Part shown: positions 1 through 50,927 of the stretch, one piece after another
Layout of the letters: every line of letters starts with the position of its first letter
Numbering within the stretch: position 1 is the first letter of the stretch
Assembly (NCBI GenBank): GCA_964614635.1
Contig: CAZTLV010000016.1
Span: 18,547 to 82,546, forward strand
Origin: an uncultured Terracidiphilus sp.
GTDB lineage: Bacteria; Acidobacteriota; Terriglobia; Terriglobales; Acidobacteriaceae
Length of the DNA stretch: 64,000 bases
Direction: 5' to 3'
Program-made: the position numbers and the translations under genes
Notes under the pieces: model-generated
What the model was told of the DNA's origin: nothing
Databases searched by the model: none
Seen by the model: only the letters and a program-made list of their open reading frames with translations

Positions 1-661
1 GAGTGAGCAACTCGTTGATGGCGCGCGGCATTTTGCGCGAGGCGTGCAGAATCACCGCCGACCCATCCATGTTGAAATGCCCATCGCGGACCGAAAGGAT
101 CTCCGCCGAAGAGCCGTCGGTAAACAGGCAGAAGTCCGCAACGCGCGCGAATCCTGTCTGCACGTCCACCAGGGCCGCACCCGCTCCGTCGCCGAACAGA
201 ATTCCAGTATTCTTGCCTTCGGGAGTAAGCGAAACGCGGCGCGACATGATTTCCGCGCCCACCACCAGGACGCGGCCTGCACCGGATGCAAGCTGCGCGG
301 CCAATATGAGCCCAATCAACGACCCTGCGGAGGAGACCGGAATGTCGAGAGCCGGCGTAGTCGCAAGTCCTAGGCCAGTGGCGATCTGGCTTGCAGGTCC
401 GGGACAAAAACGATCGCTCGATCCGCTGGCAACCAGGATCATGCCCAGGTCGGCGGCATTCGCTCCTGCGTTTTCAAGGCAATTCTTTGCAGCCTGCAAA
501 CCGATTCCGGCTACCGTATCTGTGTCGGCGGCGTAGCGGCGCTCTTCGATGCCGGAGACTTCCAGAATCCATCCTGGCGATGCATCTACTAGCGGAGCAA
601 GTTCCAGGTTATTGACGCGACGCGGCGGGAGCCATGATCCGAAGGCGCGCAAAAAGGGCAT
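1..661 (-). CDS. KAS III (FabH)-like protein, N-terminal part only (the gene runs off the left edge); probably an acyltransferase rather than a condensing enzyme
   Basis: My own translation of the minus strand from the ATG at 661..659 gives MPFLRAFGSWLPPRRVNNLELAPLVDASPGWILEVSGIEERRYAADTDTVAGIGLQAAKNCLENAGANAADLGMILVASGSSDRFCPGPASQIATGLGLATTPALDIPVSSAGSLIGLILAAQLASGAGRVLVVGAEIMSRRV..GILFGDGAGAALV. It aligns without gaps to the FabH N-terminal half. It is absent from the ORF track because there is no stop inside the window. The position equivalent to FabH Cys112 is Ser (codon 331..329). Confidence 0.8.
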   Translation of the reverse strand, partial: MPFLRAFGSWLPPRRVNNLELAPLVDASPGWILEVSGIEERRYAADTDTVAGIGLQAAKNCLENAGANAADLGMILVASGSSDRFCPGPASQIATGLGLATTPALDIPVSSAGSLIGLILAAQLASGAGRVLVVGAEIMSRRVSLTPEGKNTGILFGDGAGAALVDVQTGFARVADFCLFTDGSSAEILSVRDGHFNMDGSAVILHASRKMPRAINELLT

Positions 662-664
662 GGG

Positions 665-898
665 TCAGCTCTTGGCGGCAAGGTAGGCTTCAACCTTGCT
701 GATGGTGTCAAACTTGCGCGCTGACAAGTCAGAGTCGGGAATCGTGACTCCAAACTCCTCTTCCAACCCCGTCACAAAGTCGGCCAATGCAAATGAGTCC
801 AACAGTCCTGAAACAAACAGCGACTCGTCCGCGCCGGGGCTGATCTCTTTGCCTGACACCTTTTGCAGAACCTTAAGGATTCGCGCTTGTGGTTCCAT
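665..898 (-). CDS. Acyl/peptidyl carrier protein (ACP/DltC-like)
   Basis: 77-aa ORF with the carrier-protein signature SGLLDSFALADFV. The phosphopantetheine-attachment Ser lies in D-S-F (codon 796..794). The stop is 3 nt upstream of the KAS III-like start. Confidence 0.85.
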   Translation of the reverse strand: MEPQARILKVLQKVSGKEISPGADESLFVSGLLDSFALADFVTGLEEEFGVTIPDSDLSARKFDTISKVEAYLAAKS

Positions 899-2396
899 CT
901 GTTACTCCCTGTGCGGTAGTTTCGTTGCCATTTGCAATGCGCGCTTTATAGGCGTGGTAGCCGGAGACCAGGTCGGACACAAGAGTGTCAGCCAGCGCCC
1001 GGTATCCTTCACCGGTGAAGTGTGTGTGGTCCGGTTGCGCCCAGCCCGCGTAAACCCACTCCTGCATTGCCCCCAAACCGCCCATTCGCTTGCGCTGATC
1101 CCAATAGGCGCATCCGTGGCTGCGACAAACATTTCGCTGTGCCAGAATGATGTGATCGGTTCCGGCGTAGGGATGCCAGCTCCGATGCTGTGACAACGAA
1201 CGGTCAGGCGGGCCGACCACCAGGATCGACGACTCCGGCACATACTGGTGCAGTGTGTCGATGATGGTGGCGAAGGCCTGCTCATACGTCTCCTCATCCC
1301 AATAGGAACTGGCAGCTTCGTTGGTGCCATAAGCCAGCACGATCAAGGCAGGAGAATTGTCTTTCAGATATCGCGAGAAGAGCGGTTGATCCCATTTCAA
1401 AATCAGGGGCGCTTCAGCTCCATTGATGCCAATCGACTCCCATGTGACTCCCGGCTGGGTGGCAACCCAGCCCAGTAGAGTCACCGGTGCGCTTTGTTCC
1501 GTTGTCACTTCGAAGTGATGTGCGCCCGCAGGACAAAAATAGCTATACGTCCCTGGACCGGCGGTTGGAGCGTCGGTTTGGATTTCCGCCGTGTCAACGC
1601 CATTGTCAGTGAAGCGCAGCGTTCCGCCGCCCGGTTGCTGCAGGTATTGCAGTTCAAGCGTGGTACAGGCCGTGTCCAGCGTCACCCATTCCCCATCGCG
1701 TTCGGTCGAGATGCTGATGCCGCCGAGTCCCGTTTGCCCATCTCCAAGCTGCAGGAATTTGTTGCCCTGGGTCTTCCACCCCGCTGACTGAGAACGTTCC
1801 GAGCCAAGAATTCGGTAGCCGGCAAATGGGTGGCCCGCGTACGAGAAGCCAATGCCGCCATCGCCGAACTGATCCTGAAATACCCGTCGCGCCTCCCCGG
1901 TAAACATATCTGCCGCTGTATGCGAATCGCCGAATTGCAGCACCCGCACGGTGCCGGTTTGCGGGCCGGTGTCATGCAGGGCCGACTCGTGCGATTCGAG
2001 CTGCGCATAAAACCCATCCAGCGCGGAGCTGAATGCAATGGCCTGCGGTTCCGGGTCCTTGAGTTCTGAGCCGATCTCTTCTGCCAATGCGGCCTTGCGC
2101 GCAGGATCAACCCGCTGCCGGGGATAGTAATGCACGCGTGTGTGGAGTCGCGATCGACTTGTCTTGCCCGTAGTTGTACGAGTCGAGGGGCCGCTGACTG
2201 ACGCACCATGAGTGCTTCTGTGTGTCGCGGAGCCCGACTTGCTCGCCGCCGCGGTGTGGTGCTTCTTTTTGGTTGTTGAAGCAGAAAGCACGGCGGCGCC
2301 GGCGAACATCAGCAACAACAATGATGCAAGCACCGCCGGCATCCAGATGGAAGTGCGCCGAGTTTCATTACGCCGGGTTTGAAGATGCCAGCTCAT
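873..2396 (-). CDS. Membrane-anchored or exported SGNH/GDSL-fold protein (DltD/AlgX-like), paralogue 1
   Basis: 507-aa ORF with an N-terminal hydrophobic segment (AVLASLLLLMFAGAAVLSA) followed by an S/T/K-rich linker. SGNH blocks are FGDSHT (I), IGINGAE (II), YGTNEA (III) and DHTHF (V). A beta-rich insert sits between blocks I and II. The start overlaps the upstream stop (ATGA at 2393..2396). Confidence 0.7.
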   Translation of the reverse strand: MSWHLQTRRNETRRTSIWMPAVLASLLLLMFAGAAVLSASTTKKKHHTAAASKSGSATHRSTHGASVSGPSTRTTTGKTSRSRLHTRVHYYPRQRVDPARKAALAEEIGSELKDPEPQAIAFSSALDGFYAQLESHESALHDTGPQTGTVRVLQFGDSHTAADMFTGEARRVFQDQFGDGGIGFSYAGHPFAGYRILGSERSQSAGWKTQGNKFLQLGDGQTGLGGISISTERDGEWVTLDTACTTLELQYLQQPGGGTLRFTDNGVDTAEIQTDAPTAGPGTYSYFCPAGAHHFEVTTEQSAPVTLLGWVATQPGVTWESIGINGAEAPLILKWDQPLFSRYLKDNSPALIVLAYGTNEAASSYWDEETYEQAFATIIDTLHQYVPESSILVVGPPDRSLSQHRSWHPYAGTDHIILAQRNVCRSHGCAYWDQRKRMGGLGAMQEWVYAGWAQPDHTHFTGEGYRALADTLVSDLVSGYHAYKARIANGNETTAQGVTDGTTSANP

Positions 2397-3958
2397 TTGT
2401 CCCTGGCCTTCTTTCCGGTGTGTCTTTTGGCAGGTTTCGATTTGGGCGATGCAGTGGGTGCCTCAGTCTTCGGGGGTGCTGCGGTTGGAGCGGGCAAGGC
2501 AATGCCGTGTTGCATCTTCCATCGATTGTATCCCAGCCCCAACTGATCCACGAACAGCCCTGCCACGATAGTGGCACCCTGCGGTGTGGGATGAAGCAGG
2601 TCGGCGGTACACAACCTTGGGCTCGCCGCATACCAGCGAGCCATGGTGCCATCACCCCCCATCGCGTCGTATGTGTCGAAGAAGGCGACATGCGTCTCGG
2701 CAGCCACTTGCCGTTGAATCGCAACGATTTCGGGAATCGTACTCATGGTTTTGATTTCATCCAGCCCGGTGCGTTCACCCCGGTCCATCGGGCTCATCAC
2801 CAATATGGATGCGGATGGGACGGCCGCGCGAAGCCTCTGGATAGCTAGACGCAATTCCGCTGCGTATTGCTTGTGCACGAAGGTACCGAAACTGCTCTCG
2901 TTGGAACCATAGTTGATAATCACCAGCGTCGGCGCAGCATGGTCCAGTTCCTGCTTCCAAAGTGTGGGTTGCAGCACGCGCGCCACCACCGAGGTGGTTG
3001 CTCCATTCAATCCAAGGCTGTCGTACAGCAGCCCCGTGGTCCCACGCCTGAAATCCGCACCAAACAAGGTCACAGTTCCCGATGTGGGCCGGATTGAAAC
3101 AGTCTTTGTTCCTATGGGCAATTCCACCCGCACCCCGCCGACACTCTGCGTTTCAGCGTCGGTGGTTTCTTCCGCCATTTGCTGGTCATCCGCCTCCACC
3201 GCGAATTTGCCTCCGCCGGGTTTGGCAAGGTACTCGAAAATTACAGCGGATTGTTGCGACTCGGTAAGCCGGAATTTGCTCCATGCTCCCGGTTCTCCCT
3301 CAAACGCTGCGCCGCCAAGCCCATAGATGCCCTCGCGCATGAGCCCCACACCGGTCCGAATCTTCCATCCGTGGTCGCTGATCTCCACGCCGCGGTGTCC
3401 GTACCATGCCCATGGCTTGGCAATCAGCGCGTAACCGCGGCCGGCATCGCCAAACCGGCTCTGCAGTTGCGAGCGCACGTCCCCGGTGATCAAGTCGGCA
3501 GTCGTGGGTGAGTCGCCATAATGCAGCACTGTGACGATCCCGGCTTTCGGCTGGTCCGGGTTCGCAACTCCAAGCTGTTGTTGCTCCAGCGTCCAAAGCG
3601 CTGAGAAGAAGGGATCCAGGTTGTTGGTGTCGTCGGCAAATACAGGCGACACCTCCGGCAACTTCCCATTGCCCCTGGGTTGAATGACGGGCAGCTTAGG
3701 CACCACTGGAGCGGGCGGATGTGGCCAGGCGAGCCGGAAGGTCTCTGCGAATATCCCCGGGTCAAGCCCCTTACCGTGATCCACATACCATTGCCAACCA
3801 TACAGTGCTCCCGCCAGAACCAGGATGGCCAGCGCCGTCTTCAGCGGGAACCTATTGCCGCCGCCAGATGGGCCGGCCCCTGACTGAGTGGTGTCAGGCT
3901 GGTCGGGATCGGGTTCCGAAAGATTAAAAATTCCCATAGACAAAAGGAGCGGAACCAC
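2393..3958 (-). CDS. Membrane-anchored or exported SGNH/GDSL-fold protein (DltD/AlgX-like), paralogue 2
   Basis: 521-aa ORF with the same block order as 873..2396: YGDSPT, LGLNGAT, YGSNES, DLLHPT. It has an N-terminal TM segment (ALAILVLAGALYGW). An alternative start lies at 3937. It overlaps the MBOAT stop. Confidence 0.7.
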   Translation of the reverse strand: MVPLLLSMGIFNLSEPDPDQPDTTQSGAGPSGGGNRFPLKTALAILVLAGALYGWQWYVDHGKGLDPGIFAETFRLAWPHPPAPVVPKLPVIQPRGNGKLPEVSPVFADDTNNLDPFFSALWTLEQQQLGVANPDQPKAGIVTVLHYGDSPTTADLITGDVRSQLQSRFGDAGRGYALIAKPWAWYGHRGVEISDHGWKIRTGVGLMREGIYGLGGAAFEGEPGAWSKFRLTESQQSAVIFEYLAKPGGGKFAVEADDQQMAEETTDAETQSVGGVRVELPIGTKTVSIRPTSGTVTLFGADFRRGTTGLLYDSLGLNGATTSVVARVLQPTLWKQELDHAAPTLVIINYGSNESSFGTFVHKQYAAELRLAIQRLRAAVPSASILVMSPMDRGERTGLDEIKTMSTIPEIVAIQRQVAAETHVAFFDTYDAMGGDGTMARWYAASPRLCTADLLHPTPQGATIVAGLFVDQLGLGYNRWKMQHGIALPAPTAAPPKTEAPTASPKSKPAKRHTGKKARDK

Positions 3959-5291
3959 GGCCCGCCAGCGTTTGAATCAGCAGAATCAGGGCCGCCATGG
4001 CCAGGCCCTGCACCCAGAATGGGGTGCGAGCCGCCAGGCCGACCGAAACCTCAAACCAGCGGGCCGGGAGCGAATGGAGGATTGAAGCAATCACCAGAAA
4101 GCCAAGCACAATCGGCGTCAGATTGTCCGTCGACCAGGTAAGCGCGCCAAGACTGCGCAGGATAGCCAGGGCGTTCTGCAGAGAACTGGCGCGGAAGAAG
4201 ATCCAGGTAAAGCAGACAAAGTTGAATGTAATCAGGCCGCCCAGCAACTTGGCCCACCAATGGGGTGACGGAATTTTTCGCCACAGTTTCCAGGCGAAAA
4301 CGACGCCAAGTGCCAATCCGTGCAGCACACCCCAGATGAGGAAGTTCCAGCTGATTCCGTGCCAGAGACCGCCCAAGGTAAAAGTGATCAGGAACGCATA
4401 GCCAAATGAAAGCAGCGGATGCCTGCGCCGCTTGGGCAACACATCGAAAAGGTAATCGCGCAGCCAGTTGGAGAAGGTGATGTGCCAGCGTCGCCAGAAC
4501 TCCGCCACATTCACTGACAGGTAGGGCTGACTGAAGTTTTCAGGCAGTTGCAGGCCCAGCAGCAGTGCCGCACCGATTGCAATATCTGTGTAGCCTGAAA
4601 AATCAAAGAAGAGTTGCAGGGCATAGGCGTACACCCCCACCAGCGTTTCCACACTGGAATAGAGCGCAGGAGTGTCAAACACGCGCCCCACCAGGTTGTT
4701 AGCCAGGTAGTCGGCAATCAGCAGCTTCTTCACCAGCCCGATGCCGATCAGCAGCAGGGCGCGCCCGCCATCCTCTTTGGTGAAGGCGAATGGCTTTGAA
4801 AGCTGGGCCAAGAGCGTGCCCTGGCGCGGAATGGGCCCAGCAGTCATCGATGGGAAAAACAATGCGGATGCAAGGTAAGCCAGGTAGCTGCGGGTCGGCT
4901 TGATCTCGGCTCGGTAGAGATCGATTGTGTAAGTAAGCGATTGAAAACAATAGAACGACAAGCTCAATGTAAACAACCAGCCGAATCGACCGACGGTGAG
5001 CAGGGGAACCAGTTTGAGTCCAACCAGGAGACCAAGGTTGATCGCCAGCGACACGCCAAGCAGGACCCGGCGCGCGGCCAACTTTGGTGAGCGCCCAAAC
5101 CCAAGACCAGCCAGGTAGTCGACGCTGGCCGCCAGCGGAAGAGCGAGGTAGATCAAGCTGAAACGGGCCAGGAAGAACAGGTTTGCCGCAACCAGAATCG
5201 CCAATTGCAGCCGACGTGACCCGGCGGCGGCCCAGTAGAGGAAGCACACCGCAACCAGAAAAACAAAAAAAGGAGCCGCGCTGACCAGCAT
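3924..5291 (-). CDS. Membrane-bound O-acyltransferase (MBOAT; AlgI/DltB/PatA family)
   Basis: 455-aa polytopic membrane ORF with the MBOAT signatures FWRRWHITFSNWLRDYLF and LGGLWHGISWNFLIWGVLHG. Confidence 0.9.
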   Translation of the reverse strand: MLVSAAPFFVFLVAVCFLYWAAAGSRRLQLAILVAANLFFLARFSLIYLALPLAASVDYLAGLGFGRSPKLAARRVLLGVSLAINLGLLVGLKLVPLLTVGRFGWLFTLSLSFYCFQSLTYTIDLYRAEIKPTRSYLAYLASALFFPSMTAGPIPRQGTLLAQLSKPFAFTKEDGGRALLLIGIGLVKKLLIADYLANNLVGRVFDTPALYSSVETLVGVYAYALQLFFDFSGYTDIAIGAALLLGLQLPENFSQPYLSVNVAEFWRRWHITFSNWLRDYLFDVLPKRRRHPLLSFGYAFLITFTLGGLWHGISWNFLIWGVLHGLALGVVFAWKLWRKIPSPHWWAKLLGGLITFNFVCFTWIFFRASSLQNALAILRSLGALTWSTDNLTPIVLGFLVIASILHSLPARWFEVSVGLAARTPFWVQGLAMAALILLIQTLAGRGSAPFVYGNF

Positions 5292-5812
5292 GGAAGGAAT
5301 CCAGACTATCGTCCACGACCGCGGCGTGGAGGTTGAGCCAACCCGGGTCCGCCAAGGCCTGTTTTCATGGTGAGGGATTTCGCGCTTCGCTCACTCACAC
5401 TGCGTGCAAGAAATCTTCTTTGGGAATCCACTTGATCACCTCGCAAGTGCTTGAAGGTATGTGCAAAACCGGCGAGGTACGCCGGCAGGCGGCTCGCGGA
5501 CTTCGCCAGGAATTGGAGCGGGACAAGGGGTTACCGCATGCTAAACATTGGTTGGATCCAGCCACCTGAACGCGAAGGGACAGACCGGGCAGAGTGGTGG
5601 GCGAGACAGGCTTCGCGGGCCCAGCCAGCTAAAAATGGTTGCAAACTCGGAAAATACCTGATTTTGCACCAATTTTAGTGCATTTTACAAGTTGCAGAGG
5701 CTAAATGGCTTAGCGGGAATCTGCCGCAATTGAGGTTTTGACGGCGCCGAAATCCACGCAATTATTGTCGTTTCCAGCAAAAATGGGGTTGGCGAGTTGG
5801 TAAAATCGTCAG

Positions 5813-6361
5813 ATGGTTATTCGAAGGAAATCACGCAATATGAGCTTGAAGAGCCCGCTTGGGAATTGGATCCTGGCGGGTATTTCTTCCGTTGCGCTGG
5901 TTGCCGTGGCATTTACATTTGTCACCCCAACAGTGCAAGCAGATGCGCGGCTTCCCAGACCCGCTTCAACCGCGCCACCACCTTCCCCCATCCTGAGCGC
6001 GACACCGGCGATGCAGACTCCGCCAAAGCCCACTGTTGCTTATGAGGACAAACTCCACGGCATTGCGTCCTGGTATGGTGCTGTCCTCGATGGCCACCGC
6101 ACCGCCAGTGGAGAGCGCTTCGACATGTACGCCATGACCGCCTGCCACCCTACCCTCCCGTTCGGCAGCATCGTGCGGGTAGTCGACCGAAATACTGATA
6201 AATCGGTCGTGGTGCGCATCAACGATCGCGGCATCCTGTCCAAGGGGCGCATCATTGACCTTTCCTACGCAGCCGCCAGGGAACTTAACATCACCAGGGC
6301 CGGTCTTGCCCAGGTAGATGTCGAGGTCATTTCCCTGGGACACAAGCGCCACAAGCAGTAA
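5813..6361 (+). CDS. rlpA: Septal-ring lytic transglycosylase RlpA-family protein (DPBB domain)
   Basis: GIASWYGAVLDGHRTASGERFDMYAMTACHPTLPFGSIVRVVDRNTDKSVVVRINDRGILSKGRIIDLSYAAARELN is the classic RlpA double-psi beta-barrel core. There is an N-terminal signal/TM segment. An alternative ATG lies at 5840. Confidence 0.85.
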   Translation: MVIRRKSRNMSLKSPLGNWILAGISSVALVAVAFTFVTPTVQADARLPRPASTAPPPSPILSATPAMQTPPKPTVAYEDKLHGIASWYGAVLDGHRTASGERFDMYAMTACHPTLPFGSIVRVVDRNTDKSVVVRINDRGILSKGRIIDLSYAAARELNITRAGLAQVDVEVISLGHKRHKQ

Positions 6362-6472
6362 GCAGGCTCTCTTTTTAGCCAGCGGCCAGCCTCCGGGCTG
6401 GCTTTCCTGCTTGCCTGCGTGTTGCAGTCAGGCAAGAGCACAAGGTAGGATGGCGCACGAACGGGAGGTCTC

Positions 6473-6934
6473 ATGAACCGACGCGAATTCTCCGCTCTTC
6501 TGCCTGTGCTTTTTGCGGCTCCATCATTTGCACCCGAGGCTGCAGCCCAGGCCGTGTCGCCGCCTGCCCAATCTCAGGCTCCATTGCCCACTTTGACCTC
6601 GGGCCTCTATCCCGGAGATGCCGTCGCCGAGCCGAAGGTCCAGCACGTCACGCATCACTATGTGCTGGGCTTGCTGCCTGACAATATCCGGCTTGAGGCG
6701 CACGGCTCCATCCTTGCCCCTGGCGCGCCTCACGAGAAGGTCGGCCATCACAAGCATTCAGAGATCTGGTTTATGCGCACCGGCACCGCTACGCTCATGA
6801 CCGCCGGCACCGAACGAACCCTCAAACCCGGGGACATGGGCATTTGCATAGCCGGAGACGAGCACTGGATCGGGAATGCAAGCGCCACCGAGCCCGTCTC
6901 GTACTACGTGCTCACCGTCGGCCCGCCCGAGTAA
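6473..6934 (+). CDS. Exported cupin-domain protein (twin-arginine-type signal)
   Basis: The N-terminus MNRREFSALLPVLFAAPSFAPEAAAQA has an RR-x-F motif. The cupin core is GHHKHSEIWFMRTGTATL...PGDMGICIAGDEHWIGN. It is a paralogue of 45093..45569. Confidence 0.7.
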   Translation: MNRREFSALLPVLFAAPSFAPEAAAQAVSPPAQSQAPLPTLTSGLYPGDAVAEPKVQHVTHHYVLGLLPDNIRLEAHGSILAPGAPHEKVGHHKHSEIWFMRTGTATLMTAGTERTLKPGDMGICIAGDEHWIGNASATEPVSYYVLTVGPPE

Positions 6935-6961: not shown

Positions 6962-6999
6962 TTGACAATCGACAAGAGCCAGATTAAATCTATTGTCGA
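6962..6999 (+). promoter_or_regulatory. Candidate sigma70-type promoter with an overlapping inverted repeat (possible PadR operator)
   Basis: TTGACA (6962..6967), a 17-nt spacer, then TAAATC (6985..6990), located 26 nt upstream of the PadR ATG at 7016. An inverted repeat TCGACAA (6969..6975) / TTGTCGA (6993..6999) brackets the -10 element. Confidence 0.35.
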
Positions 7000-7015
7000 A
7001 TGCCGAGGGGAACCG

Positions 7016-7360
7016 ATGCCACCATCCACAGACCTATTACAGGGAACGCTGGACCTGCTCATTCTGCAAACGCTTGTCCTTGGCCCGATGCACGGTTGGG
7101 GAGTCGCGCAGCGGATTCAGCAGGTTTCGAAGGATGTATTGCAGATCGGCCAGGGGTCGCTCTACCCGGCATTGCATCGCCTCGAATACAAGGGTTGGAT
7201 TCAGTCCGATTGGGGTAACTCTGACAACAATCGGCGTGCGAAGTTCTACTCCCTTACCCCCACTGGCAGAAAGCAGCTCGAGTCTGAGCGCGAGACCTGG
7301 GAGCTTCTCTCCTCGGCCATTGGCCTGGTGCTGGGCAGGGTTCCGGAGGCGTCAGCATGA
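7016..7360 (+). CDS. PadR-family transcriptional regulator
   Basis: LLQGTLDLLILQTLVLGPMHGWGVAQRIQQVSKDVLQIGQGSLYPALHRLEYKGWIQSDWGNSDNNRRAKFYSLTPTGRKQL is the PadR winged-helix signature. I chose the ATG at 7016 rather than the TTG at 6962, which lies inside the predicted promoter. Confidence 0.9.
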   Translation: MPPSTDLLQGTLDLLILQTLVLGPMHGWGVAQRIQQVSKDVLQIGQGSLYPALHRLEYKGWIQSDWGNSDNNRRAKFYSLTPTGRKQLESERETWELLSSAIGLVLGRVPEASA

Positions 7361-9984
7361 TCAAAGAATTCCTGACGCGAGCCCGATTCTTGTTGGAGCG
7401 CTCCAAGCCAGCCGAAATGGACGATGAGCTCCAGTTCCATGTCGAGCAGTCGACCGCAGCCAACATAACTGCGGGGATGACAGAGATCGAAGCGCGGAGG
7501 CGAGCACTTGTCGAATTCGGCGGCTTTGAGCGGACGCGAGAACAATGCCATGAACAACGCCCGGGCTGGTGGATGGGCACGGTGGCGCAGGATGTCCGCT
7601 ATGCGCTGAGAGGCTTCCGCCGCAATCCAGTCTTTGCTGTCACTGTGATTGCGACTCTTGCGCTCGGTATCGGCGGTACCACAGCGGTCTTCAGCGTCGT
7701 AGACCGGATTCTCTTCCGCAGCCTGCCCTATGCTCATGACGACCGCCTTGTGTCCGTGGGGTTGGTAGCCCCGATCATTCCCCAGGAGTTCATGCTCGGC
7801 GGCTCCTACTACGACTGGCGTGATAATCAGAAGCCATTCGAGGCGTTCACGTCGGAAACGGGCGTGAATGAGTGCGACCTGACGGAACATAATCCGGCGC
7901 GACTGAGATGCGCCAGCGTGGAAGCGAATTTTCTGCCCACGTTCGGCATTTCGCCAATTCTTGGACGCAATTTTCTTCCCGAAGAGGATCGGCCCAAAGG
8001 GCCGAAAGTAGCGCTCATCTCCTACGGCTTGTGGACAACCGAATATGCCCGCGACCCGGGCATCGTGAACAAACTGGTTGAGATTGATGGCAACCAAGTC
8101 AGAGTGATTGGTGTATTGCCGCAGAACTTTGAGATGCCCACACTTCAGGCGGCCGACGTGTTGGTGCCGCAGGCGTTGGATGAGGCGGCGCAACGCAAGG
8201 TCGACCCCGGCCGGGTGATGTATGCATTCGCACGACTCAAATCCGGGGTGAGCATTCAGGAGGCCGAGCGGCAGCTTCAACCCGTCTTCAACTACTCGCT
8301 CAGTCTGGCTCCGCAGCAATTCCGCAACGAAGTCCATTTGCGCGTTCGATCGGTTCGAGACCGTGAGGTGCAAGACGTCCTGCTGGTTGCTTGGGTGCTC
8401 CTGGGTGCCGTCTTCGCGGTGCTCTTGATCGCCTGCGCCAACGTCGCCAGTTTGCTGATGGCGCGGTCCGCGCCCCGGCAACGGGAGTTGGCTGTGCGCT
8501 CCGTGCTGGGAGCAAGCAGAGGCCGGCTAGTTCGCCAATCTCTCACCGAGACCTTTCTTTTGTCCATCGCGGGAGCAATCGGCGGCTCTGTTCTGGCCGA
8601 AATCCTTTTGCGAGTCTTTATTGCCATTGCACCGACAGGAATTCCGTTTCTTGCACAGGCGCAACTCGACTTGCGCATCATTCTGTTTACGGTTCTTCTT
8701 TCGCTAATTTGCGGTGCAGCCTTTGGGGTTCTGCCGGCAATCCAAAAGCCCCGACCGGCTGCGTTGGCCGCGCGTGCAAAAAGCTATCCCGCTCACGCAT
8801 GGCTGCGACGGTCTCTGGTGGTGGGACAGATCGCGATCAGCATGTCCCTCTTGATTGGCGCGGCGTCGCTGCTCCGTAGCTTCAGCAATATCGAGAACCA
8901 GCCGACTGGCATGCAGACCCAGGGCGTACTTGCAGCGCACATCTCGCTACCGGGCTATCGATTCACAACAGCGCAACAGCAAATGGAATTCTTCCTCCGC
9001 GCAGAGGCCTCGTTGCGTCAGTTGCCGGGTGTGCAGGTTGTGGGGATGACCGACTCCCTGCCTCCGGGCGAGATGCACGGCCAACAGATTTATAGCAACA
9101 TTGCGATAGCCGGGAAGCCGCGGTCGATGGCCGGTACGGGCGGCATGGTGACATGGCGCAGGGTCACGCCGGACTATTTCAAATCGCTCGAAATTTCCAT
9201 TGTTCGCGGGCAGGGATTTACTGAGCAAGAACGCACCTCAGGCGAGCGCTTTTTGGTACTAAGCAACCTACTCGCCACTCGCATGTTTGGGCTCGAAAAT
9301 CCCATCGGCCAGCACGTTCAACCTGTTCCCAATGGACCGTGGTACACAGTCCTCGGTGTGGCCGCGAATGTGAAGAATGCCGGACTGGCAGGTGAGGACG
9401 AACCCGAGTTCTACCAGTTGCGACGCAGTCACGCCGAGGATTGGACTTCAAGTTGCGTAATGGTCATCAAAACCTCCGGTTCACCCGAGGCAGTTGCTCC
9501 ATGGGTCCGGTCGCAGATCGCTCAAATCGATCCCACCATTCCGATCGACATTGACACTCTCAAACAAGATTTGAGCAAGCTGGCCGACCGGCCGCGCTTT
9601 GAGACAGCGTTGCTCGGATTTTTTGCGTTTTGCGGGCTCGTCATGGCTGTGATCGGTCTTTACGGAGTCATCTCGTTTGTGGCAGTGCAGCGCACCCAGG
9701 AGATTGGGGTGCGCATGGCACTGGGCGCATCTCGCCTGGACATCCTCCGGCTCATTGCCGGTGAAGGCGTTCGGCTGATCATCGTTGGAGGAGTTGCCGG
9801 AATGGGAGCAGCGTTGGCCAGCGGACAACTGCTTAAGAGCCTGCTTTACAACGTTGGGCCACGCGATCCGGCAATTTATGTCGGAGTTGCGCTGCTGCTG
9901 GCACTTGTCTCGCTCGCAGCCACCCTCATTCCAGCCCGAGCTGCAATGAAAGTTGAGCCGGTGGAAGCCCTGCGCTACGAATGA
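7357..9984 (+). CDS. Duplicated FtsX/MacB-type ABC permease without an adjacent ATPase (ADOP-like orphan permease)
   Basis: 875-aa ORF whose start overlaps the PadR stop (ATGA). It has the N-terminal prefix ELQFHVEQSTAANITAGMTEIEARRRALVEFGG, then two copies of TM, large periplasmic domain and FtsX 3-TM module. The pattern RTQEIGVRMALGA recurs, compare RELAVRSVLGA. Confidence 0.9.
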   Translation: MIKEFLTRARFLLERSKPAEMDDELQFHVEQSTAANITAGMTEIEARRRALVEFGGFERTREQCHEQRPGWWMGTVAQDVRYALRGFRRNPVFAVTVIATLALGIGGTTAVFSVVDRILFRSLPYAHDDRLVSVGLVAPIIPQEFMLGGSYYDWRDNQKPFEAFTSETGVNECDLTEHNPARLRCASVEANFLPTFGISPILGRNFLPEEDRPKGPKVALISYGLWTTEYARDPGIVNKLVEIDGNQVRVIGVLPQNFEMPTLQAADVLVPQALDEAAQRKVDPGRVMYAFARLKSGVSIQEAERQLQPVFNYSLSLAPQQFRNEVHLRVRSVRDREVQDVLLVAWVLLGAVFAVLLIACANVASLLMARSAPRQRELAVRSVLGASRGRLVRQSLTETFLLSIAGAIGGSVLAEILLRVFIAIAPTGIPFLAQAQLDLRIILFTVLLSLICGAAFGVLPAIQKPRPAALAARAKSYPAHAWLRRSLVVGQIAISMSLLIGAASLLRSFSNIENQPTGMQTQGVLAAHISLPGYRFTTAQQQMEFFLRAEASLRQLPGVQVVGMTDSLPPGEMHGQQIYSNIAIAGKPRSMAGTGGMVTWRRVTPDYFKSLEISIVRGQGFTEQERTSGERFLVLSNLLATRMFGLENPIGQHVQPVPNGPWYTVLGVAANVKNAGLAGEDEPEFYQLRRSHAEDWTSSCVMVIKTSGSPEAVAPWVRSQIAQIDPTIPIDIDTLKQDLSKLADRPRFETALLGFFAFCGLVMAVIGLYGVISFVAVQRTQEIGVRMALGASRLDILRLIAGEGVRLIIVGGVAGMGAALASGQLLKSLLYNVGPRDPAIYVGVALLLALVSLAATLIPARAAMKVEPVEALRYE

Positions 9985-15305: not shown

Positions 15306-16151
15306 CTAAGGGAGGATTGCGTTGTCGATGAGCCGAGTTGACCCTACCCATGCGGCAATCGCAAACAGAGTGCCCGGCACAGCAACTTCAATCGGCAGAA
15401 GTGTGGCCCAATCGACAAGCGCGATGTAATCAACGCGGACTCCCGGGGCGCCAGCCAGGGCTTGGCGAGCCGCCTCCTGAAGAAAACTGGCGCGCCGCTC
15501 GCCAGCTGCAACCAGCAACTCAACCTGGCGAATGCATTGGCTCAAAACCAGCGCCTGATTTCGTTCCGCGGCACGGAGATAAATGTTCCTGGAACTCAAC
15601 GCCAAGCCGTCGGAATCGCGAACGATGGGACACACCACGATTTCGGTTCCAATGCGCAAGTCGGTAACCATGCGTCGAACTACCGAGCATTGCGCCGCAT
15701 CTTTTTGGCCAAAGAAGGCACGGTTTGCTTCGCAGGCAATCAGAAGCTTTGCCACGACGGTAGAGACGCCGCGAAAGTGCCCAGGCCGCGATTGACCGTC
15801 GAGCCGATCCCCTATCCCTTCCACGTCAACCAACGTCGCCGCGCCTTCGGGATACATCTCCTCCACTGATGGTGCGAAAACGACCTGTGCCCCTTCCTCT
15901 TCCGCCAGTGCGCAATCGGCGTCAAAACTGCGCGGGTAGAGGGCGAAGTCTTCATTGGGGCCGAACTGCGCCGGGTTTACAAAGATGCTCACGGCGACGT
16001 TACTGCTCGCATCATGCGCAGCGCGAATCAATGAACCGTGGCCTCGATGCAACGCACCCATCGTAGGCACAAGCCCCACAGTTTGTGCGTTCCAACTGCG
16101 TTGTTTGCGAGACCAATGACGCAGCTCAACAACGGTGCGAAGAATCTCCAT
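15306..16151 (-). CDS. panC: Pantoate--beta-alanine ligase
   Basis: VGLVPTMGALHRGHGSLIRAA and FGQKDAAQ are PanC signatures. The start shares 1 nt with the panB stop. Confidence 0.95.
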   Translation of the reverse strand: MEILRTVVELRHWSRKQRSWNAQTVGLVPTMGALHRGHGSLIRAAHDASSNVAVSIFVNPAQFGPNEDFALYPRSFDADCALAEEEGAQVVFAPSVEEMYPEGAATLVDVEGIGDRLDGQSRPGHFRGVSTVVAKLLIACEANRAFFGQKDAAQCSVVRRMVTDLRIGTEIVVCPIVRDSDGLALSSRNIYLRAAERNQALVLSQCIRQVELLVAAGERRASFLQEAARQALAGAPGVRVDYIALVDWATLLPIEVAVPGTLFAIAAWVGSTRLIDNAILP

Positions 16152-17068
16152 CAGGCTTTGCGCAGCTTGCCCAGCGGCTGGTCGGCGTCAAGAGCCTGGC
16201 GTGCCGCTTCAGGCAAATGATAGCTCTCCTCGTCTGAAGGGAATGCGTGATGCTCAACGTCTTCGCGGTAATGTTCGATAGCACTCCGGATGAGCGCGCC
16301 CGCGTCGCCATAACGTCTGACAAACTTGGCCGGAGGCGCAAATGTCAGGTTCAGCATGTCGTGGAAGACGAGGATTTGCCCATCGCAATTCGGCCCGGCG
16401 CCAATGCCGATGGTAGGGATTGTCAGCTCGCCGCTGATTGCGGCGGCCACCTCGCGCGGAATGCCTTCAAGCACGATTGCCCCGGCGCCTGCCTCGGCAA
16501 GGGCGAGCGCGTCGGCTTTGAGCTGGATCACAGTTTCCGCAGTGCGGGCCTGCACGCGGTAACCGCCCATGCGATGCACGCTTTGTGGCGTCAGGCCTAG
16601 ATGACCCACTACGGGGATCTCTGATTCGGTGAGTGCGCGAACCAGTTCAATCCGTGCACCCTCAATCTTGACGGCCTCGGCGCCAGCTTCTTTCACAAAA
16701 CGGACTGCATTGCCTAATCCCTCTGCAACCGTTCCGTGATAGCTGCCAAACGGCATGTCGGCAACCACCAGGGCGCGGCGAACGGCGCGATGAACCGCGC
16801 GCGTGTGGTGGAGCATTTCATCTACCGTGACTGAAAGGGTGTTTTCGTGGCCCAGTACCACCATGGCCAGCGAATCACCCACCAGCAGCAAGTCGATTCC
16901 GGCTTCATCAGCCAACCGCGAAGTCGCATAGTCGTACGCGGTCAGCGCTGAGATGGGCTTGGCCTGGCGCTTCATCTCAATCAGCGTAGGCATCGTGACT
17001 TTTGTGATGGGATTGGCAGTGCTGATGGGCGCGGAACTGTCGCCGCCGGGGAAGTGCGTAATGCTCAT
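16151..17068 (-). CDS. panB: 3-methyl-2-oxobutanoate hydroxymethyltransferase
   Basis: LTAYDYATSRLADEAGIDLLLVGDSLAMVVLGHENTL...VKIEGA...VVGHLGLTPQS matches PanB. I chose the ATG at 17068, which is preceded by GGAGACAAC. Confidence 0.95.
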   Translation of the reverse strand: MSITHFPGGDSSAPISTANPITKVTMPTLIEMKRQAKPISALTAYDYATSRLADEAGIDLLLVGDSLAMVVLGHENTLSVTVDEMLHHTRAVHRAVRRALVVADMPFGSYHGTVAEGLGNAVRFVKEAGAEAVKIEGARIELVRALTESEIPVVGHLGLTPQSVHRMGGYRVQARTAETVIQLKADALALAEAGAGAIVLEGIPREVAAAISGELTIPTIGIGAGPNCDGQILVFHDMLNLTFAPPAKFVRRYGDAGALIRSAIEHYREDVEHHAFPSDEESYHLPEAARQALDADQPLGKLRKA

Positions 17069-17257
17069 GTTGTCTCCAGTGCCGCTCCGCAAACCCAGGA
17101 TGCGACCCGAACAAGCAAAGTATACGCCGGTTTGGAATTCAGCGGAATCAGCCGGGCCATCGCCTCAATCTTTCCCGAGCCCGGCATCGACCGCGAACGC
17201 GCTTGCGGACCCTTCGCCCGACGCTGCACACTGAAAGCCGAACGATTGGACGGACAA

Positions 17258-24180: not shown

Positions 24181-24894
24181 TTATTCTAAAGACAGTTTTG
24201 CTGTGAAATTGTTGCTTTCGGCCTTCAATTGCTGCCAGAGCGCGACAGTCTGGTCCAGGAGCGCGGACTTATCTCCCGTGTTGTCCAGTACATAGTCGGC
24301 ATGCTTCACTTTTTCAGCATCGGGGATCTGGTGCGCGAGCCGACGCCGAGCGTCGGCTTCAGCAGCTTCCCGGCTTGCATAACTTACGCGACCTTCTCCC
24401 GCCTGAAAGATCCTGTCCACATAGCGGGCGATCTTCACGTCGTCAGACGCTGTCACAACCACTAACCGTGTGATGCGCCGCCGCCAATCCGCCAGAATGC
24501 TGTCCTTGTCGCCGCGTGCGCGCGCATCCCGCTCGACTTCAAAGATCAACGCTGACTCAACAACCGCTACCGCCGCCGGATCGCGCTCGAAAACCTCGTT
24601 CATCCACAGTTGCTGCGCGGCAATCACCGCCGGATGCACAATGGCGTTGAGCTCGTGAATCCTGTTTGCCTGAAATGCCAGCTCAGCCAGGCGCGAGCGG
24701 TTCAGCCGCCCATCTGCGCCCACTACATCCGGTCCGAAGACGCGCACGATCTCCGCAGAAACCCGCTGGCCAGGCTCCATCAACTTGCGGCCCAACTCGT
24801 CAGCCTCAATCACCTCGGCGCCAAGCTTGCCCAAATATCCGGCGACGGTACTCTTCCCGCTCCCAAGCCCGCCGGTCAGGCCGACACGCAACAT
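24181..24894 (-). CDS. coaE: Dephospho-CoA kinase
   Basis: VGLTGGLGSGKSTVAGYL is the P-loop at the extreme N-terminus and matches the CoaE layout. At 237 aa it has a longer C-terminus than the roughly 200 aa I expect. Confidence 0.85.
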   Translation of the reverse strand: MLRVGLTGGLGSGKSTVAGYLGKLGAEVIEADELGRKLMEPGQRVSAEIVRVFGPDVVGADGRLNRSRLAELAFQANRIHELNAIVHPAVIAAQQLWMNEVFERDPAAVAVVESALIFEVERDARARGDKDSILADWRRRITRLVVVTASDDVKIARYVDRIFQAGEGRVSYASREAAEADARRRLAHQIPDAEKVKHADYVLDNTGDKSALLDQTVALWQQLKAESNNFTAKLSLE

Positions 24895-32455: not shown

Positions 32456-33643
32456 TCAACGAATTATCTGCGGCTCTTCACGACGCTGTTCACCGTTCAG
32501 CTTCAGTTTGCTGATGTGAACGTCGTATCCGGTGGCAGGCAGCAGGGATTCAAGCACAAACGTCTCCGTGCCGCCCGACTTGAGTTCGCGATAGCGATAC
32601 ACGCCAACCTCACCTTCGCTGCTCTCCGTGCCGCCGGTGGGTGCATTCAAAAAGCGCTGTGCATCATCTACGGTTGCTGTAGAGGACTTGTCGCCTTCGC
32701 TCAGGCTCTCCGCCGCATAGGACCGCGCCAGTTTGGTCCAGTAGCGGGAAAGCAGTTCGGTATCTGCAAAAAGGTCAGCCCATACGATCTCGCCGCGCAC
32801 CGCCACGACAACTCCGATGGCATGTTCCTCACGCAGCCTGGCAAGCACCTGGTCACGGGACTTCATCACTGGAGCAATCTCTTCATCTATCTTTGCGCTT
32901 ACGCCGCTGTCCTGCATGGCTTTTGCATAGCTCGTAGTGTTGAAGCTCCTGTAAGCCCCGGCCGACCCTGACGAGGATGGTGAAGCAGAAGGCGCCGCGG
33001 CCGCCATGTTCAAGATGGCGCCGCTCACTGAATCCCACACATGCTGCTGGCTCTTTGAGACCATCGCTTCCTGGCGAACTGTGGGCTGAACCATGAAGCT
33101 GCCCACTTTGCCCATGCCTGCGGCTCCGAATTTCGCCGATGTCTCTGTCCACCGACCGTGCTCGATGCAAAATACCGAAAGGTCGATGGGATCACTGCCC
33201 GCGGGAACAATTCGATCCTTGGCAATGATTCTGTCCTGTTTGCCACCGGTCACAATCTCGCCCGCAAGCAGCAGCAAAGGTTGACTGGAGTTGTTCACCA
33301 GTACCAGCGTGTTCACCATGTCGCCGCGATAGCGATCTTCCCAAACCGGCCCATTGCCTCTGGGGCGAACGAGCCCGCGGACCTTTCCCGCTTCAGTCAC
33401 TTCCACCTGTCCACCCTTGATCCCTTCGTCAAGGGTGAGAAATGGAGTAGCGCCGGGAGACTTGCTATTTGCTCTCACAACCGGGAAAAGCAACAGGTTG
33501 CCGCTCTCGATGGGCGCCAGCACCTTGAAGTCGTTTGCCGGCTCAACCGGCCCTCCGCCTGCCATCACGCCGCTATGCTGCTCAAATGCTGCGAGCGCAA
33601 ATAGCGCGGCGCCCGCAAGACCAATTCTGCCGAGATTCATCAT
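32456..33643 (-). CDS. Exported protein of unknown function (N-terminal region resembles the ARPP-1/DUF6569-type domain)
   Basis: The ATG at 33643 is preceded by AAGGAGAG. The signal peptide is MMNLGRIGLAGAALFALAAF. The segment LLLFPVV...FLTLDEGIKGGQVEVTEAGKV...LVNNSSQPLLLLAGEIVTGGKQDRI...PAGSDPIDLSVFCIEHGRW matches my memory of that family. This is unverified. Confidence 0.55.
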   Translation of the reverse strand: MMNLGRIGLAGAALFALAAFEQHSGVMAGGGPVEPANDFKVLAPIESGNLLLFPVVRANSKSPGATPFLTLDEGIKGGQVEVTEAGKVRGLVRPRGNGPVWEDRYRGDMVNTLVLVNNSSQPLLLLAGEIVTGGKQDRIIAKDRIVPAGSDPIDLSVFCIEHGRWTETSAKFGAAGMGKVGSFMVQPTVRQEAMVSKSQQHVWDSVSGAILNMAAAAPSASPSSSGSAGAYRSFNTTSYAKAMQDSGVSAKIDEEIAPVMKSRDQVLARLREEHAIGVVVAVRGEIVWADLFADTELLSRYWTKLARSYAAESLSEGDKSSTATVDDAQRFLNAPTGGTESSEGEVGVYRYRELKSGGTETFVLESLLPATGYDVHISKLKLNGEQRREEPQIIR

Positions 33644-33708
33644 GACTCTCCTTCGCCGGCTGCCTGCGCTGCCGGGCTCTACGTCAGGAACGCCCGCTGA
33701 CTGCTTTC

Positions 33709-34710
33709 TTGCAGTCTTTTTTTGTGTCACCGGTTTGGCGTATCTTGAGGGCAGTGGGGATTACACCGTCTCAACCCGTTGAGAGCACGCCCGCAGGCAA
33801 AGTTTTCGTCCTGCCCGGCAGCATCGATCTCGTGTTGTTCGAAGAACTTTGGCGAGAATGCGGAAAGGGCGCTTTCGGCCTGACGCGGGAAGAATTCAGC
33901 GCGATTCTGATTCGCGCAGGCACCACTCAGGACTATGGGATGAGCCCCGATCTGCTTGCCGGATCGCCCCCTTCAACCCAGCAGCAGGCGACCTTCTACC
34001 ATGGTTTGAAGCTGGCAGACCTGGTGCTGGCCCAGGCCTGCGCGCAGGGCAACGAGCGAGCATGGGAGCACTTTCTTGCGCTGTACCGCCAACCCCTTGA
34101 GCGGGCAGCCATTGCAATTACCGGAGGCGTATCGCTAGGACGTGATCTTGCCGACCAACTCTATGCAGAGCTCTACGGGATGACAACAAAAGACGGACAG
34201 AGGCGCTGCCCCCTCGATTCCTATCGCGGCCGCGGGTCGCTGATTGGCTGGCTCAGAACCACTCTCGCCCAGCGCCACGTGGACCACCACCGGCGCACCC
34301 ATCGTGAGCAGCCGATTAAAGAAATGCATGAATTTGAAGCGCCGCCTCTCGATTCAGAGTTGGAAAACTCTGACAGCGAACTAAGTTTGCTGGGCAAGGC
34401 CATTGCAGCGGCTCTCGCAGAGAGACAGCCTGAAGAACGATTCTTGCTGGCAACCTACTATCTTGATGGACGAACGCTTTTTCAAATCGGCCAGGTCCTC
34501 CACGTGCACGAAGCCACCATCAGCCGGAAGCTGCGTCGTGTTGTGGAGGACCTTAGGAAACAGGTGCTGAAGCGTCTGCAAACGCTGGGAATGAGCAAGC
34601 GCGCCGCCGAAGAGGCGCTTGGAACTGACCCGCGAGACCTTGATATCAATCTGAAGAAACTATTGCAAACTTCGCAATCGGATGCGTTCCAAGAGAAGGC
34701 TGCACAATGA
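33709..34710 (+). CDS. ECF-type sigma-70 family RNA polymerase sigma factor (long N-terminus; start uncertain)
   Basis: The region-2-like segment is FLALYRQPLERAAIAITG...LYAELY. The region-4 HTH is LLATYYLDGRTLFQIGQVLHVHEATISRKLRRVVEDLRK. The stop overlaps the anti-sigma start (ATGA). Confidence 0.8.
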   Translation: MQSFFVSPVWRILRAVGITPSQPVESTPAGKVFVLPGSIDLVLFEELWRECGKGAFGLTREEFSAILIRAGTTQDYGMSPDLLAGSPPSTQQQATFYHGLKLADLVLAQACAQGNERAWEHFLALYRQPLERAAIAITGGVSLGRDLADQLYAELYGMTTKDGQRRCPLDSYRGRGSLIGWLRTTLAQRHVDHHRRTHREQPIKEMHEFEAPPLDSELENSDSELSLLGKAIAAALAERQPEERFLLATYYLDGRTLFQIGQVLHVHEATISRKLRRVVEDLRKQVLKRLQTLGMSKRAAEEALGTDPRDLDINLKKLLQTSQSDAFQEKAAQ

Positions 34711-48316: not shown

Positions 48317-48338
48317 TCTGAGGATCCAAGAGGAGAAG

Positions 48339-50893: not shown

Positions 50894-50927
50894 TTCGATC
50901 ACGGGTTCGGGCATCGAAAGACGAAAA

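Follow-up and report, generated by a model that had tools for sequence, protein, structure and literature searches.

Bacterial pathways that pair a membrane-bound O-acyltransferase (MBOAT) with an extracytoplasmic SGNH protein have been described in two kinds: the Dlt pathway, in which the acyl group is donated by a carrier protein and the FxYxxF-type shuttle motif is supplied by a separate microprotein, DltX, and the remaining pathways, which use an acyl-coenzyme A (acyl-CoA) donor, have the shuttle fused to the MBOAT and lack a carrier protein (PMC12148441). In PatA-type MBOATs the C-terminal FxYxxF motif is borne on two extra transmembrane helices that are absent from DltB, and its Tyr is auto-acetylated from acetyl-CoA and then hands this acetyl on to its partner, the SGNH protein (Anderson et al., JBC 2025, PMC12148441). 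Here we describe an operon at positions 1-5291 of a 64,000-nt stretch of DNA (the window) from contig CAZTLV010000016.1 of an uncultured Terracidiphilus sp., in which five consecutive minus-strand open reading frames (ORFs) unite a fused-shuttle MBOAT with a DltC-like carrier, an arrangement found widely across the Acidobacteriota, a phylum among the most abundant in soil. We infer a trans-envelope system for the O-acylation and de-acylation of a glycan, similar to patA-patB-ape1 but drawing its acyl group from a dedicated carrier as in Dlt. In its specific form the reading is of a PatA-type MBOAT pathway that depends on a carrier, has a cognate esterase and adds O-acyl groups, probably acetyl, to peptidoglycan; we give it a probability of about 0.5.

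The genes encode, in the direction of transcription, the MBOAT, two SGNH proteins (SGNH-1 and SGNH-2), the carrier and a protein resembling the type III ketoacyl-ACP synthase (KAS III; ACP, acyl carrier protein). All five products far exceed the curated Pfam cut-offs (MBOAT, 84 bits, 1.2e-23; Lipase_GDSL_2, 68 and 47 bits, 2e-18 and 7e-12; PP-binding, 37 bits, 4e-9; ACP_syn_III, 50 bits, 2e-13), which confirms the family assignments made in an earlier note on this DNA. The tight packing of five minus-strand genes described there was also seen when the ORFs and their junctions were read directly. The MBOAT stop codon (3924-3926) lies within SGNH-1, 14 nt in from its ATG start or 35 nt in from its GTG start, the two SGNH genes share an ATGA overlap (2393-2396), the SGNH-2 stop (873) lies 26 nt within the carrier gene, and a 3-nt gap (TGA-CCC-ATG) parts the carrier gene from the KAS III-like one. 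The shorter, 514-aa form of SGNH-1 is the one chosen by public gene callers, and its ATG (3935-3937) sits within the codons of the C-terminal hexapeptide of the MBOAT. The layout is not a product of chance, since the gene order is kept in dozens of genomes.

Both conserved histidines of the MBOAT, His270 (RRWH) and His311 (LWHG), align with DltB, which is its only solved sequence relative; the closest matches in the PDB (8JEM/6BUG, 7e-29) cover residues 92-367 only. Two extra hydrophobic segments (residues 390-412 and 424-444) follow this DltB-homologous core, and the protein ends, as read directly from the DNA, in FVYGNF and a stop codon. Among the orthologous MBOATs, 34 have their C-terminus within an ORF closed by a stop codon, and every one of these ends in F[VIL]YxxF. 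Against the NCBIfam DltB model the protein scores 185 bits, where the cut-off is 375. By these features the MBOAT is of the PatA/AlgI type and not of the DltB type.

The carrier carries its phosphopantetheine-attachment residue, Ser35 (codon 794-796), within the motif ESLFxSGxLDSF; across 61 sequences, the conservation of the motif and of this Ser is at 90% or higher. Part of this motif, LFxxGxLDS, is common to the carrier and DltC. In the PDB, DltC proteins take the first four places (7R49 at 1e-7, 8JF2, 6BUG_A and 1DV5), with AcpM and AcpP-type ACPs ranking below them, and identity to E. coli AcpP is 30%. DltC is also the best NCBIfam match, with scores of 41.9 and 24 bits against cut-offs of 68 and 52.35. 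As judged from these comparisons, the carrier is DltC-like, resembling DltC rather than AcpP or the ACPs of polyketide synthases (PKS). To our knowledge, DltC is the only carrier known to feed an MBOAT.

The KAS III-like gene is cut by the left edge of the window, and its continuation was read from two contigs, L001 (ENA), which is identical to the window across the 1000 nt compared, and L082 (JGI, 243 kb, from the source genome of the window), which carries the window's genes and flanks. The complete protein has 309 aa and is encoded by the final gene of the unit (L001, L082 and P0001). It can be aligned over its whole length with E. coli FabH (1HN9, 5e-44; 34-35% identity), with Ser111 (codon 329-331) in the place of the catalytic Cys112, while His235 and Asn265, both encoded off-window, are retained. 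The full-length protein falls below the NCBIfam FabH cut-offs (239 vs 249 for NF006829; 218 vs 292 for TIGR00747). The substitution is not peculiar to this genome: among 120 close homologues examined, 112 of the 113 with a readable motif have Ser at the Cys position and one has Tyr. When 1.84 billion cluster representatives were searched, the top-ranking matches down to about 40% identity carried [LIV]P[VIM][AS]SAGS with Ser, and beyond that level the matches turned abruptly into canonical Cys enzymes. A distinct Ser clade was seen among 50%-identity representatives, and in a neighbour-joining tree the Ser proteins are monophyletic with respect to Cys-type FabH.

The functional residues of E. 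coli FabH were mapped onto 61 members of this clade, all 61 of which have Ser at the Cys position, and onto 17 Cys-type FabH proteins. In E. coli numbering the clade retains Trp32, Phe157, Met207, Gly209, His244, Asn247 and Asn274, and keeps a small acyl pocket (Phe87 mostly kept, Leu142 replaced by Met, Leu189, Leu205). Arg249, the key AcpP-docking residue of FabH in a site formed with Lys214 and Lys256/257, is replaced by Asn in 59 of the 61 clade members and kept in all 17 Cys-type enzymes. Additionally, Lys214 is replaced by Leu or Met and Phe213 by Ile, and the Arg151 position is occupied by Arg or Lys in 48/61. This pattern of lost and retained residues fits a change of carrier partner and an acyl group that is short. 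On this evidence the protein is not a FabH but belongs to a distinct Acidobacteriota clade, and the earlier description of it as FabH-like is not supported, given the exchange of Cys for Ser, the sub-threshold FabH scores and the loss of the AcpP-docking Arg. What does stand is that a KAS III-type protein is the only candidate loader in view; no adenylating enzyme is encoded in the operon, nor in the 10 kb that flank it to each side in L082.

Public annotations of the operon are generic ('DltB (MBOAT superfamily)', 'lysophospholipase L1-like esterase', 'acyl carrier protein', '3-oxoacyl-ACP synthase-3'). Two of these labels, both from JGI, together with the best NCBIfam matches (DltB, DltC and FabH), would favour either a genuine Dlt-type D-alanylation system or a housekeeping FabH/AcpP pair for the initiation of fatty acid synthesis. 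However, each of the three matches remains under its curated cut-off, as given above. A Dlt system would further be expected to include a DltA-like ligase, DltD and DltX, none of which accompanies this MBOAT with its fused shuttle motif that DltB lacks, and an AMP-binding, DltA-like gene is not conserved in the related loci either. The housekeeping pair, for its part, is at odds with an enzyme that lacks Cys112 and Arg249 and with the low identity of the carrier to AcpP. Both proposals fail their defining tests and were rejected as extremely improbable. The term 'Dlt-like', used for the operon in the earlier note, is only half right: the MBOAT has a fused FxYxxF, absent from DltB, and the SGNH proteins belong to the Ape1 family rather than resembling DltD.

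The two SGNH proteins are paralogues (30% identical). SGNH-2 matches the peptidoglycan O-acetylesterase NmApe1 (4K3U) at 4.7e-31 over residues 148-476, which comprise the whole SGNH domain including its inserted beta-sandwich, and CjApe1 (8GKD/8GLD) at 3e-12. Its build is an N-terminal membrane anchor (residues 15-42), a Ser/Thr/Lys-rich linker and the Ape1-like SGNH domain with beta-sandwich. SGNH-1 matches NmApe1 more weakly (2e-10), and an AlphaFold2 model built from 74 sequences (pLDDT 76.8, pTM 0.74) predicts a similar build, in which an N-terminal (membrane) helix leads through a disordered linker into an SGNH domain that carries the beta-sandwich insert. Foldseek places this model closest to NmApe1 (TM score 0.85, E 5e-23) and CjApe1 (TM score about 0.79), with the next matches at 0.36 or below. 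The PatB structures 7TJB and 8TLB gave no match to either SGNH protein in sequence searches at E<=1; DltD was likewise absent from those matches, and neither PatB nor DltD is in the Foldseek top 50 for the SGNH-1 model. Blocks I, II, III and V are conserved across 32 sequences of SGNH-1, where they read GDS, G-x-N-G, G-x-N-E and D-x-x-H (Ser150, Gly319, Asn353, Asp453, His456), and across 38 of SGNH-2 (Ser158, Gly326, Asn359, Asp456, His459). The Ser/Asp/His triad residues, whose absence from the roughly 510-aa proteins the earlier note had named as a result that would speak against it, are therefore kept in both sequences, and SGNH-1 models as an Ape1-like SGNH fold. By sequence and predicted fold, both proteins are members of the Ape1 family.

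The two paralogues are proposed to differ in role. SGNH-1 follows the MBOAT gene in every locus showing both regions, SGNH-2 is missing from three loci (L138, L108 and L149), and the order of the genes resembles patA-patB-ape1. For these reasons SGNH-1 is read as the glycan O-acyltransferase partner of the MBOAT, a putative functional analogue of PatB, and SGNH-2 as the putative O-acyl esterase, orthologous to Ape1. Public gene callers differ over the start of SGNH-2 (507, 486 or 420 aa), and tblastn matches to it in close relatives extend back to residues 6-23. The long form is probably correct, because it includes the membrane anchor and because the matches in relatives reach so far back.

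The distribution of the operon was followed in two scans with different anchors. The first covered one genome per GTDB species with the alignment of Ser-clade proteins as query, yielding 80 loci, which were then probed by tblastn with the five window proteins; 60 were informative. Almost all of the Ser-clade loci are from Acidobacteriota (Acidobacteriaceae, Bryobacteraceae, Solibacteraceae and a metagenome-assembled genome (MAG) of Holophagaceae), and the cultured hosts include Granulicella rosea DSM 18704 (L012) and Granulicella sp. S190 (L018). Nearly all loci of the clade have the carrier gene immediately upstream of the KAS III(Ser) gene, and the MBOAT and SGNH genes stand directly upstream of this pair in 43/60, in the order seen in the window where the contig allows. 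In the deep-branching locus L080 the pair is followed, 2-7 kb downstream and on the opposite strand, by an SGNH-MBOAT-SGNH cluster. The second scan, of metagenomes, was anchored on SGNH-1 and was hence blind to the carrier. Among its 47 informative loci the carrier comes right after SGNH-2 in 38, a count that includes L138, where MBOAT, SGNH-1, carrier and KAS III occur without SGNH-2. The KAS III(Ser) gene follows in these 38 wherever the contig is long enough, except in L093, where the carrier is present and no such gene occurs in the following 3.7 kb. Overall, 72-81% of related loci have the carrier and KAS III(Ser) genes linked to the MBOAT genes. The genes overlap or nearly abut, and the linkage extends over families in which protein identity is down to 40-50%.

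Several individual loci depart from this pattern or carry doubtful labels. In L015 (7771-10915) about 2 kb is inserted between the carrier and KAS III(Ser) genes, and in L046 SGNH-2, carrier and KAS III are present but the 8.6 kb upstream hold neither an MBOAT nor an SGNH-1 gene. The tblastn matches in L063 and in L006/L016/L043/L057 are fragmented, which points to frameshifts or faulty assembly. The MAGs of two Ser-clade loci bear the labels 'Verrucomicrobia bacterium' (L013) and 'Bordetella parapertussis' (L020); mis-binning or mislabelling is likely, since their proteins nest among Acidobacteriota sequences.

Taken together, these features suggest the following pathway. A housekeeping phosphopantetheinyl transferase (PPTase) would convert the DltC-like carrier to its holo form at Ser35, and the KAS III-like enzyme, through Ser111-His235-Asn265, would load it with a short acyl group, most likely acetyl. 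The acyl-carrier would then dock at the cytoplasmic face of the MBOAT, where His311 would catalyse transfer to Tyr452 of FVYGNF on the periplasmic side, a chemistry proposed by analogy with CjPatA and with DltB/DltX. From this Tyr the membrane-anchored SGNH-1 (Ser150/Asp453/His456) would move the acyl group to a glycan, most likely to the O-6 of N-acetylmuramic acid (MurNAc) in peptidoglycan. SGNH-2, the closer Ape1 relative, would remove it again, so that lytic transglycosylases like the neighbouring RlpA-like protein could carry out turnover. The earlier note had proposed that an envelope polymer is O-acylated with a short acyl group in a carrier-dependent way, and this also appears to be the best reading of the present data. 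That note had left both donor and acceptor open, but the acceptor no longer appears wholly so: membership of the Ape1 family, a gene order like that of patA-patB-ape1 and a conserved divergent RlpA-like gene point to peptidoglycan.

Loading of the carrier could proceed by either of two routes, an acyl-CoA:carrier transacylation through an acyl-O-Ser intermediate or a decarboxylation of malonyl-carrier by the retained His/Asn pair. As the enzyme is not a FabH, the CoA-derived acyl group of the earlier note stays as one of these two options only. Precedents exist among KAS III-like enzymes: ChlB3 loads a discrete ACP and CerJ is an acyltransferase, both with a Cys-His-Asp triad, while DpsC is described with a Ser and two His (PMC9573744). 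Neither DpsC nor CerJ chains were found among the PDB sequence matches at E<=1e-5. E. coli FabH C112S, as well as the ketosynthase-like KS-Q and chain length factor (CLF) domains of PKS, retain malonyl-ACP decarboxylase activity, which makes the conversion of malonyl-carrier to acetyl-carrier a serious alternative to transacylation. A stronger version, in which the acyl group is made on the carrier by the Ser-His-Asn enzyme and is not simply acetyl from acetyl-CoA, strikes us as distinctly unlikely. It would proceed either by such a decarboxylation, tying wall acylation to the malonyl pool, or by a DpsC-like condensation giving a beta-ketoacyl (acetoacetyl) carrier. Acidobacterial peptidoglycan would in that case bear, or be acylated by way of, a chemistry not known from any cell wall, and the MBOAT would be the first of the PatA type to read a carrier-protein thioester.

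A number of observations weigh against the proposed pathway, the first group of them at the step between carrier and MBOAT, which is proposed from gene linkage and from the resemblance of the carrier to DltC. The strongest counter-argument is that CjPatA auto-acetylates from acetyl-CoA directly (PMC12148441), so that the carrier module may be unrelated or accessory. Furthermore, the carrier/KAS III(Ser) pair stands alone in 17/60 loci of the first scan, and 9/47 of the second are unlinked, seven with MBOAT-SGNH-1-SGNH-2 only and two with MBOAT-SGNH-1 only. This raises the possibility of two unrelated modules sharing one operon, MBOAT-SGNH-1-SGNH-2 as an ordinary O-acetylation and esterase system of the PatA/Ape1 kind, fed by acetyl-CoA and in no need of a carrier, and a pair that serves another pathway, for example the priming of a lipid or a small polyketide. 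MBOAT-SGNH clusters without the pair do exist, and the pair is the tightest unit. The neighbours of the stand-alone pairs vary (flagellin/FliD/FliW, GDP-mannose dehydratase and GDP-fucose synthase, a glycosyltransferase, RND pump components), yet for the same reason they argue against this account, as none is common across clades among the 17 loci and no conserved partner genes define another pathway. Moreover, the linkage holds in most loci and survives the rearrangement in L080, the carrier is of the DltC kind and not an AcpP or PKS ACP, and the Ser enzyme lacks the usual ketosynthase nucleophile. In the KAS III tree and in the SGNH-1 tree alike, unlinked loci group into clades at comparable positions, with one unlinked clade in each tree being sister to the L022/L023/L035/L055 group, as expected from lineage-specific splits of the operon in which both halves were retained. 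On balance, we consider two unrelated modules rather unlikely.

The loading step has its own difficulties. The Arg36 that contacts CoA in FabH is replaced by Val or Ala in the clade, and with Trp32 kept and Arg36 lost the residue mapping is ambiguous between an acyl-CoA and a malonyl-carrier substrate. A Ser nucleophile may also transacylate poorly, given that the C116S variant of CerJ is inactive in acyl transfer (PMC9573744).

The remaining objections concern the periplasmic steps. PatB and OatA replace the block II Gly (PMC12148441), and the operon has no PatB-type transferase: neither SGNH protein shows the PatB-type pattern of a block II Gly changed to Ser or Asn and no carbohydrate-binding module, and neither sequence is otherwise marked as a transferase. 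Since both retain the esterase-type Gly, the transferase activity of SGNH-1 is an assumption, and the case for peptidoglycan as acceptor is one of family membership only. The same mechanism might accordingly act on an exopolysaccharide, cellulose or a sugar linked to lipopolysaccharide (LPS), with the two membrane-anchored SGNH paralogues forming a relay reminiscent of AlgJ/AlgX. The identity between SGNH-1 and Ape1 of only 19% in the structural alignment would be compatible with this, as would the occurrence of some stand-alone pairs near sugar-nucleotide and glycosyltransferase genes. However, polysaccharide synthase or export genes are absent within 10 kb of the operon in L082 and are not conserved in the related loci, and Pfam detected no AlgF or AlgX-type domains in the operon products. 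The only close relatives of the SGNH proteins are peptidoglycan O-acetylesterases with the same inserted module, and a lytic transglycosylase of the RlpA type is encoded divergently next to the MBOAT gene. Another acceptor therefore seems unlikely, and peptidoglycan is retained as the proposed substrate of the carrier-fed pathway.

The coordinates of the operon and of the region upstream of it are collected in Table 1.

Table 1. Features of the operon and its upstream region, in window coordinates.
Feature	Position	Strand	Remarks
MBOAT	3924..5291	-	455 aa ORF
SGNH-1	2393..3958	-	521 aa from GTG; 514 aa from ATG at 3937
SGNH-2	873..2396	-	507 aa ORF
Carrier protein	665..898	-	77 aa ORF
KAS III-like protein	1..661	-	first 220/309 codons; remaining 269 nt past left edge
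Codons of the FxYxxF hexapeptide F450-V-Y452-G-N-F455	3927..3944	-	C-terminus of MBOAT; Tyr452 codon 3936-3938
Divergent intergenic region, 521 nt	5292..5812		5' of MBOAT gene; presumed operon promoter region
RlpA-like DPBB lytic transglycosylase, 182 aa	5813..6361	+	Pfam DPBB_1 7.8e-25

A promoter and terminator scan of positions 1-6500 gave no minus-strand sigma-70-like site 5' of the MBOAT gene, and matches in this region were no commoner than in shuffled sequence. Similarly, an Rfam scan of the entire window found no family at gathering score, and no riboswitch or leader was identified. The divergent RlpA-like gene recurs in the same position in seven other Acidobacteriaceae loci (L005, L006, L008, L012, L018, L057 and L060). 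It is the only neighbour to recur, in this one family, in a search for further conserved genes around the operon (PPTase, ligase, glycosyltransferase). Because RlpA-like proteins act on peptidoglycan, it is possibly associated functionally with the operon.

The earlier note had expected the operon to run on beyond the left edge, but only the end of the KAS III-like gene is missing there. It is followed in L001 and L082 by about 365 nt and a tRNA-Phe gene on the opposite strand, and past this, in L082, by unrelated genes for an adenosine-deaminase-family protein, a CarboxypepD_reg protein and a MacB-type permease. Genes for a ligase, PPTase, glycosyltransferase, fatty acid synthase (FAS) or PKS do not follow the operon in L082, so that the FAS or PKS cluster to which, as that note had considered, the carrier and KAS III might have belonged is not there. 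The nearest genes of lipid metabolism noted, fabZ, lpxA and lpxI, are 9 kb from the operon in L082.

Several other features of the surroundings were recorded. A PadR regulator with a MacB/FtsX-type permease (875 aa) adjoins the operon at 6962-9984 (+), and a second MacB-type permease lies across its other side (L082 14597-17050); the PadR and MacB/FtsX genes are a typical acidobacterial pair and are not conserved with the operon elsewhere. The pantothenate and CoA genes panC, panB and coaE (15306-17092 (-) and 24181-24894 (-)), 10-20 kb from the operon, are probably ordinary housekeeping genes. At 32456-36074 an ARPP-1 domain protein (424 aa, minus strand) is encoded beside a 333-aa ORF without a Pfam match and a 455-aa zf-HC2 (anti-sigma-like) protein. 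Further along, a cluster at 45587-53945 (+) encodes two caspase-domain (Peptidase_C14) proteins, one of 909 aa with DUF4384 and one of 422 aa, with a 429-aa protein without Pfam match between them and a 1005-aa TPR and CHAT protein, and resembles a metacaspase/CHAT module.

Among described systems, the O-acetylpeptidoglycan (OAP) cluster patA-patB-ape1 of Neisseria and Campylobacter is one of the closest. Both have an MBOAT with a catalytic His and a fused C-terminal FxYxxF, followed by two periplasmic SGNH proteins, the second of which is an Ape1 homologue with an inserted, CBM35-like beta-sandwich, and the N-terminal membrane anchor and long linker of the SGNH proteins are as described for PatB. 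In the place of PatB, however, this operon has an Ape1 paralogue that has diverged but retains the block II Gly. It also adds genes for a carrier resembling DltC and for a KAS III whose active-site residue is Ser, whereas the published OAP system uses acetyl-CoA directly (PMC12148441). The alginate and cellulose systems (AlgI-AlgJ-AlgF-AlgX and WssFGHI) similarly share an FxYxxF MBOAT and two extracytoplasmic SGNH-like proteins, one with a carbohydrate-binding module. They differ from this locus in their AlgF/WssF and AlgX/AlgJ-type domains and nearby synthase genes, none of which occur here, and in lacking the carrier and KAS III-like gene.

With the Dlt pathway the operon has in common a DltC-like carrier gene near an MBOAT whose closest solved relative is DltB, together with an extracytoplasmic SGNH protein, and the shared logic would run from a carrier thioester through the MBOAT to a Tyr, an SGNH Ser and finally a polymer. 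It differs in that DltA is replaced by a thiolase-fold, KAS III-like candidate loader, in that DltX is absent because the shuttle motif is fused to the MBOAT, and in that Ape1-family SGNH proteins stand in the place of DltD. Teichoic acids, the acceptor in Dlt, are not expected in a Gram-negative-type acidobacterium. The putative loader in turn shares with FabH the full-length thiolase fold, His244, Asn274, Asn247, Phe157 and the small acyl pocket, but its Ser-His-Asn combination is found neither in FabH (Cys-His-Asn) nor in ChlB3/CerJ; Arg249, Lys214 and Arg36 of FabH are replaced, and its partner is a DltC-like carrier in an envelope operon rather than a FAS or PKS. ChlB3 provides a precedent for the loading of a discrete ACP by a KAS III-like enzyme, and DpsC one for the Ser nucleophile.

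No description of a carrier protein or KAS III tied to PatA/Ape1-type systems was found in the literature searched (full text), nor any relevant paper on a KAS III with serine in its active site, nor anything there on peptidoglycan modification in Acidobacteria. All component families and the overall logic are already known, so the operon is not categorically new. A carrier-fed PatA-type pathway would nonetheless be new, given the published statement that MBOAT/SGNH pathways other than Dlt lack a carrier (PMC12148441). If the carrier does feed the MBOAT, the operon would be a natural intermediate between the Dlt and acyl-CoA kinds and would offer a means of studying what decides whether an MBOAT accepts CoA or a carrier protein, and a clade of mis-annotated "FabH" proteins with a Ser nucleophile would gain a function. 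The pathway as proposed would also show that an Ape1-fold protein can replace PatB, and would give a first handle on peptidoglycan modification in Acidobacteria. The comparison with known systems thus suggests that what is new here is the joining of a PatA-type MBOAT/Ape1-family cluster to a Dlt-style carrier, with a thiolase-fold rather than an adenylating loader.

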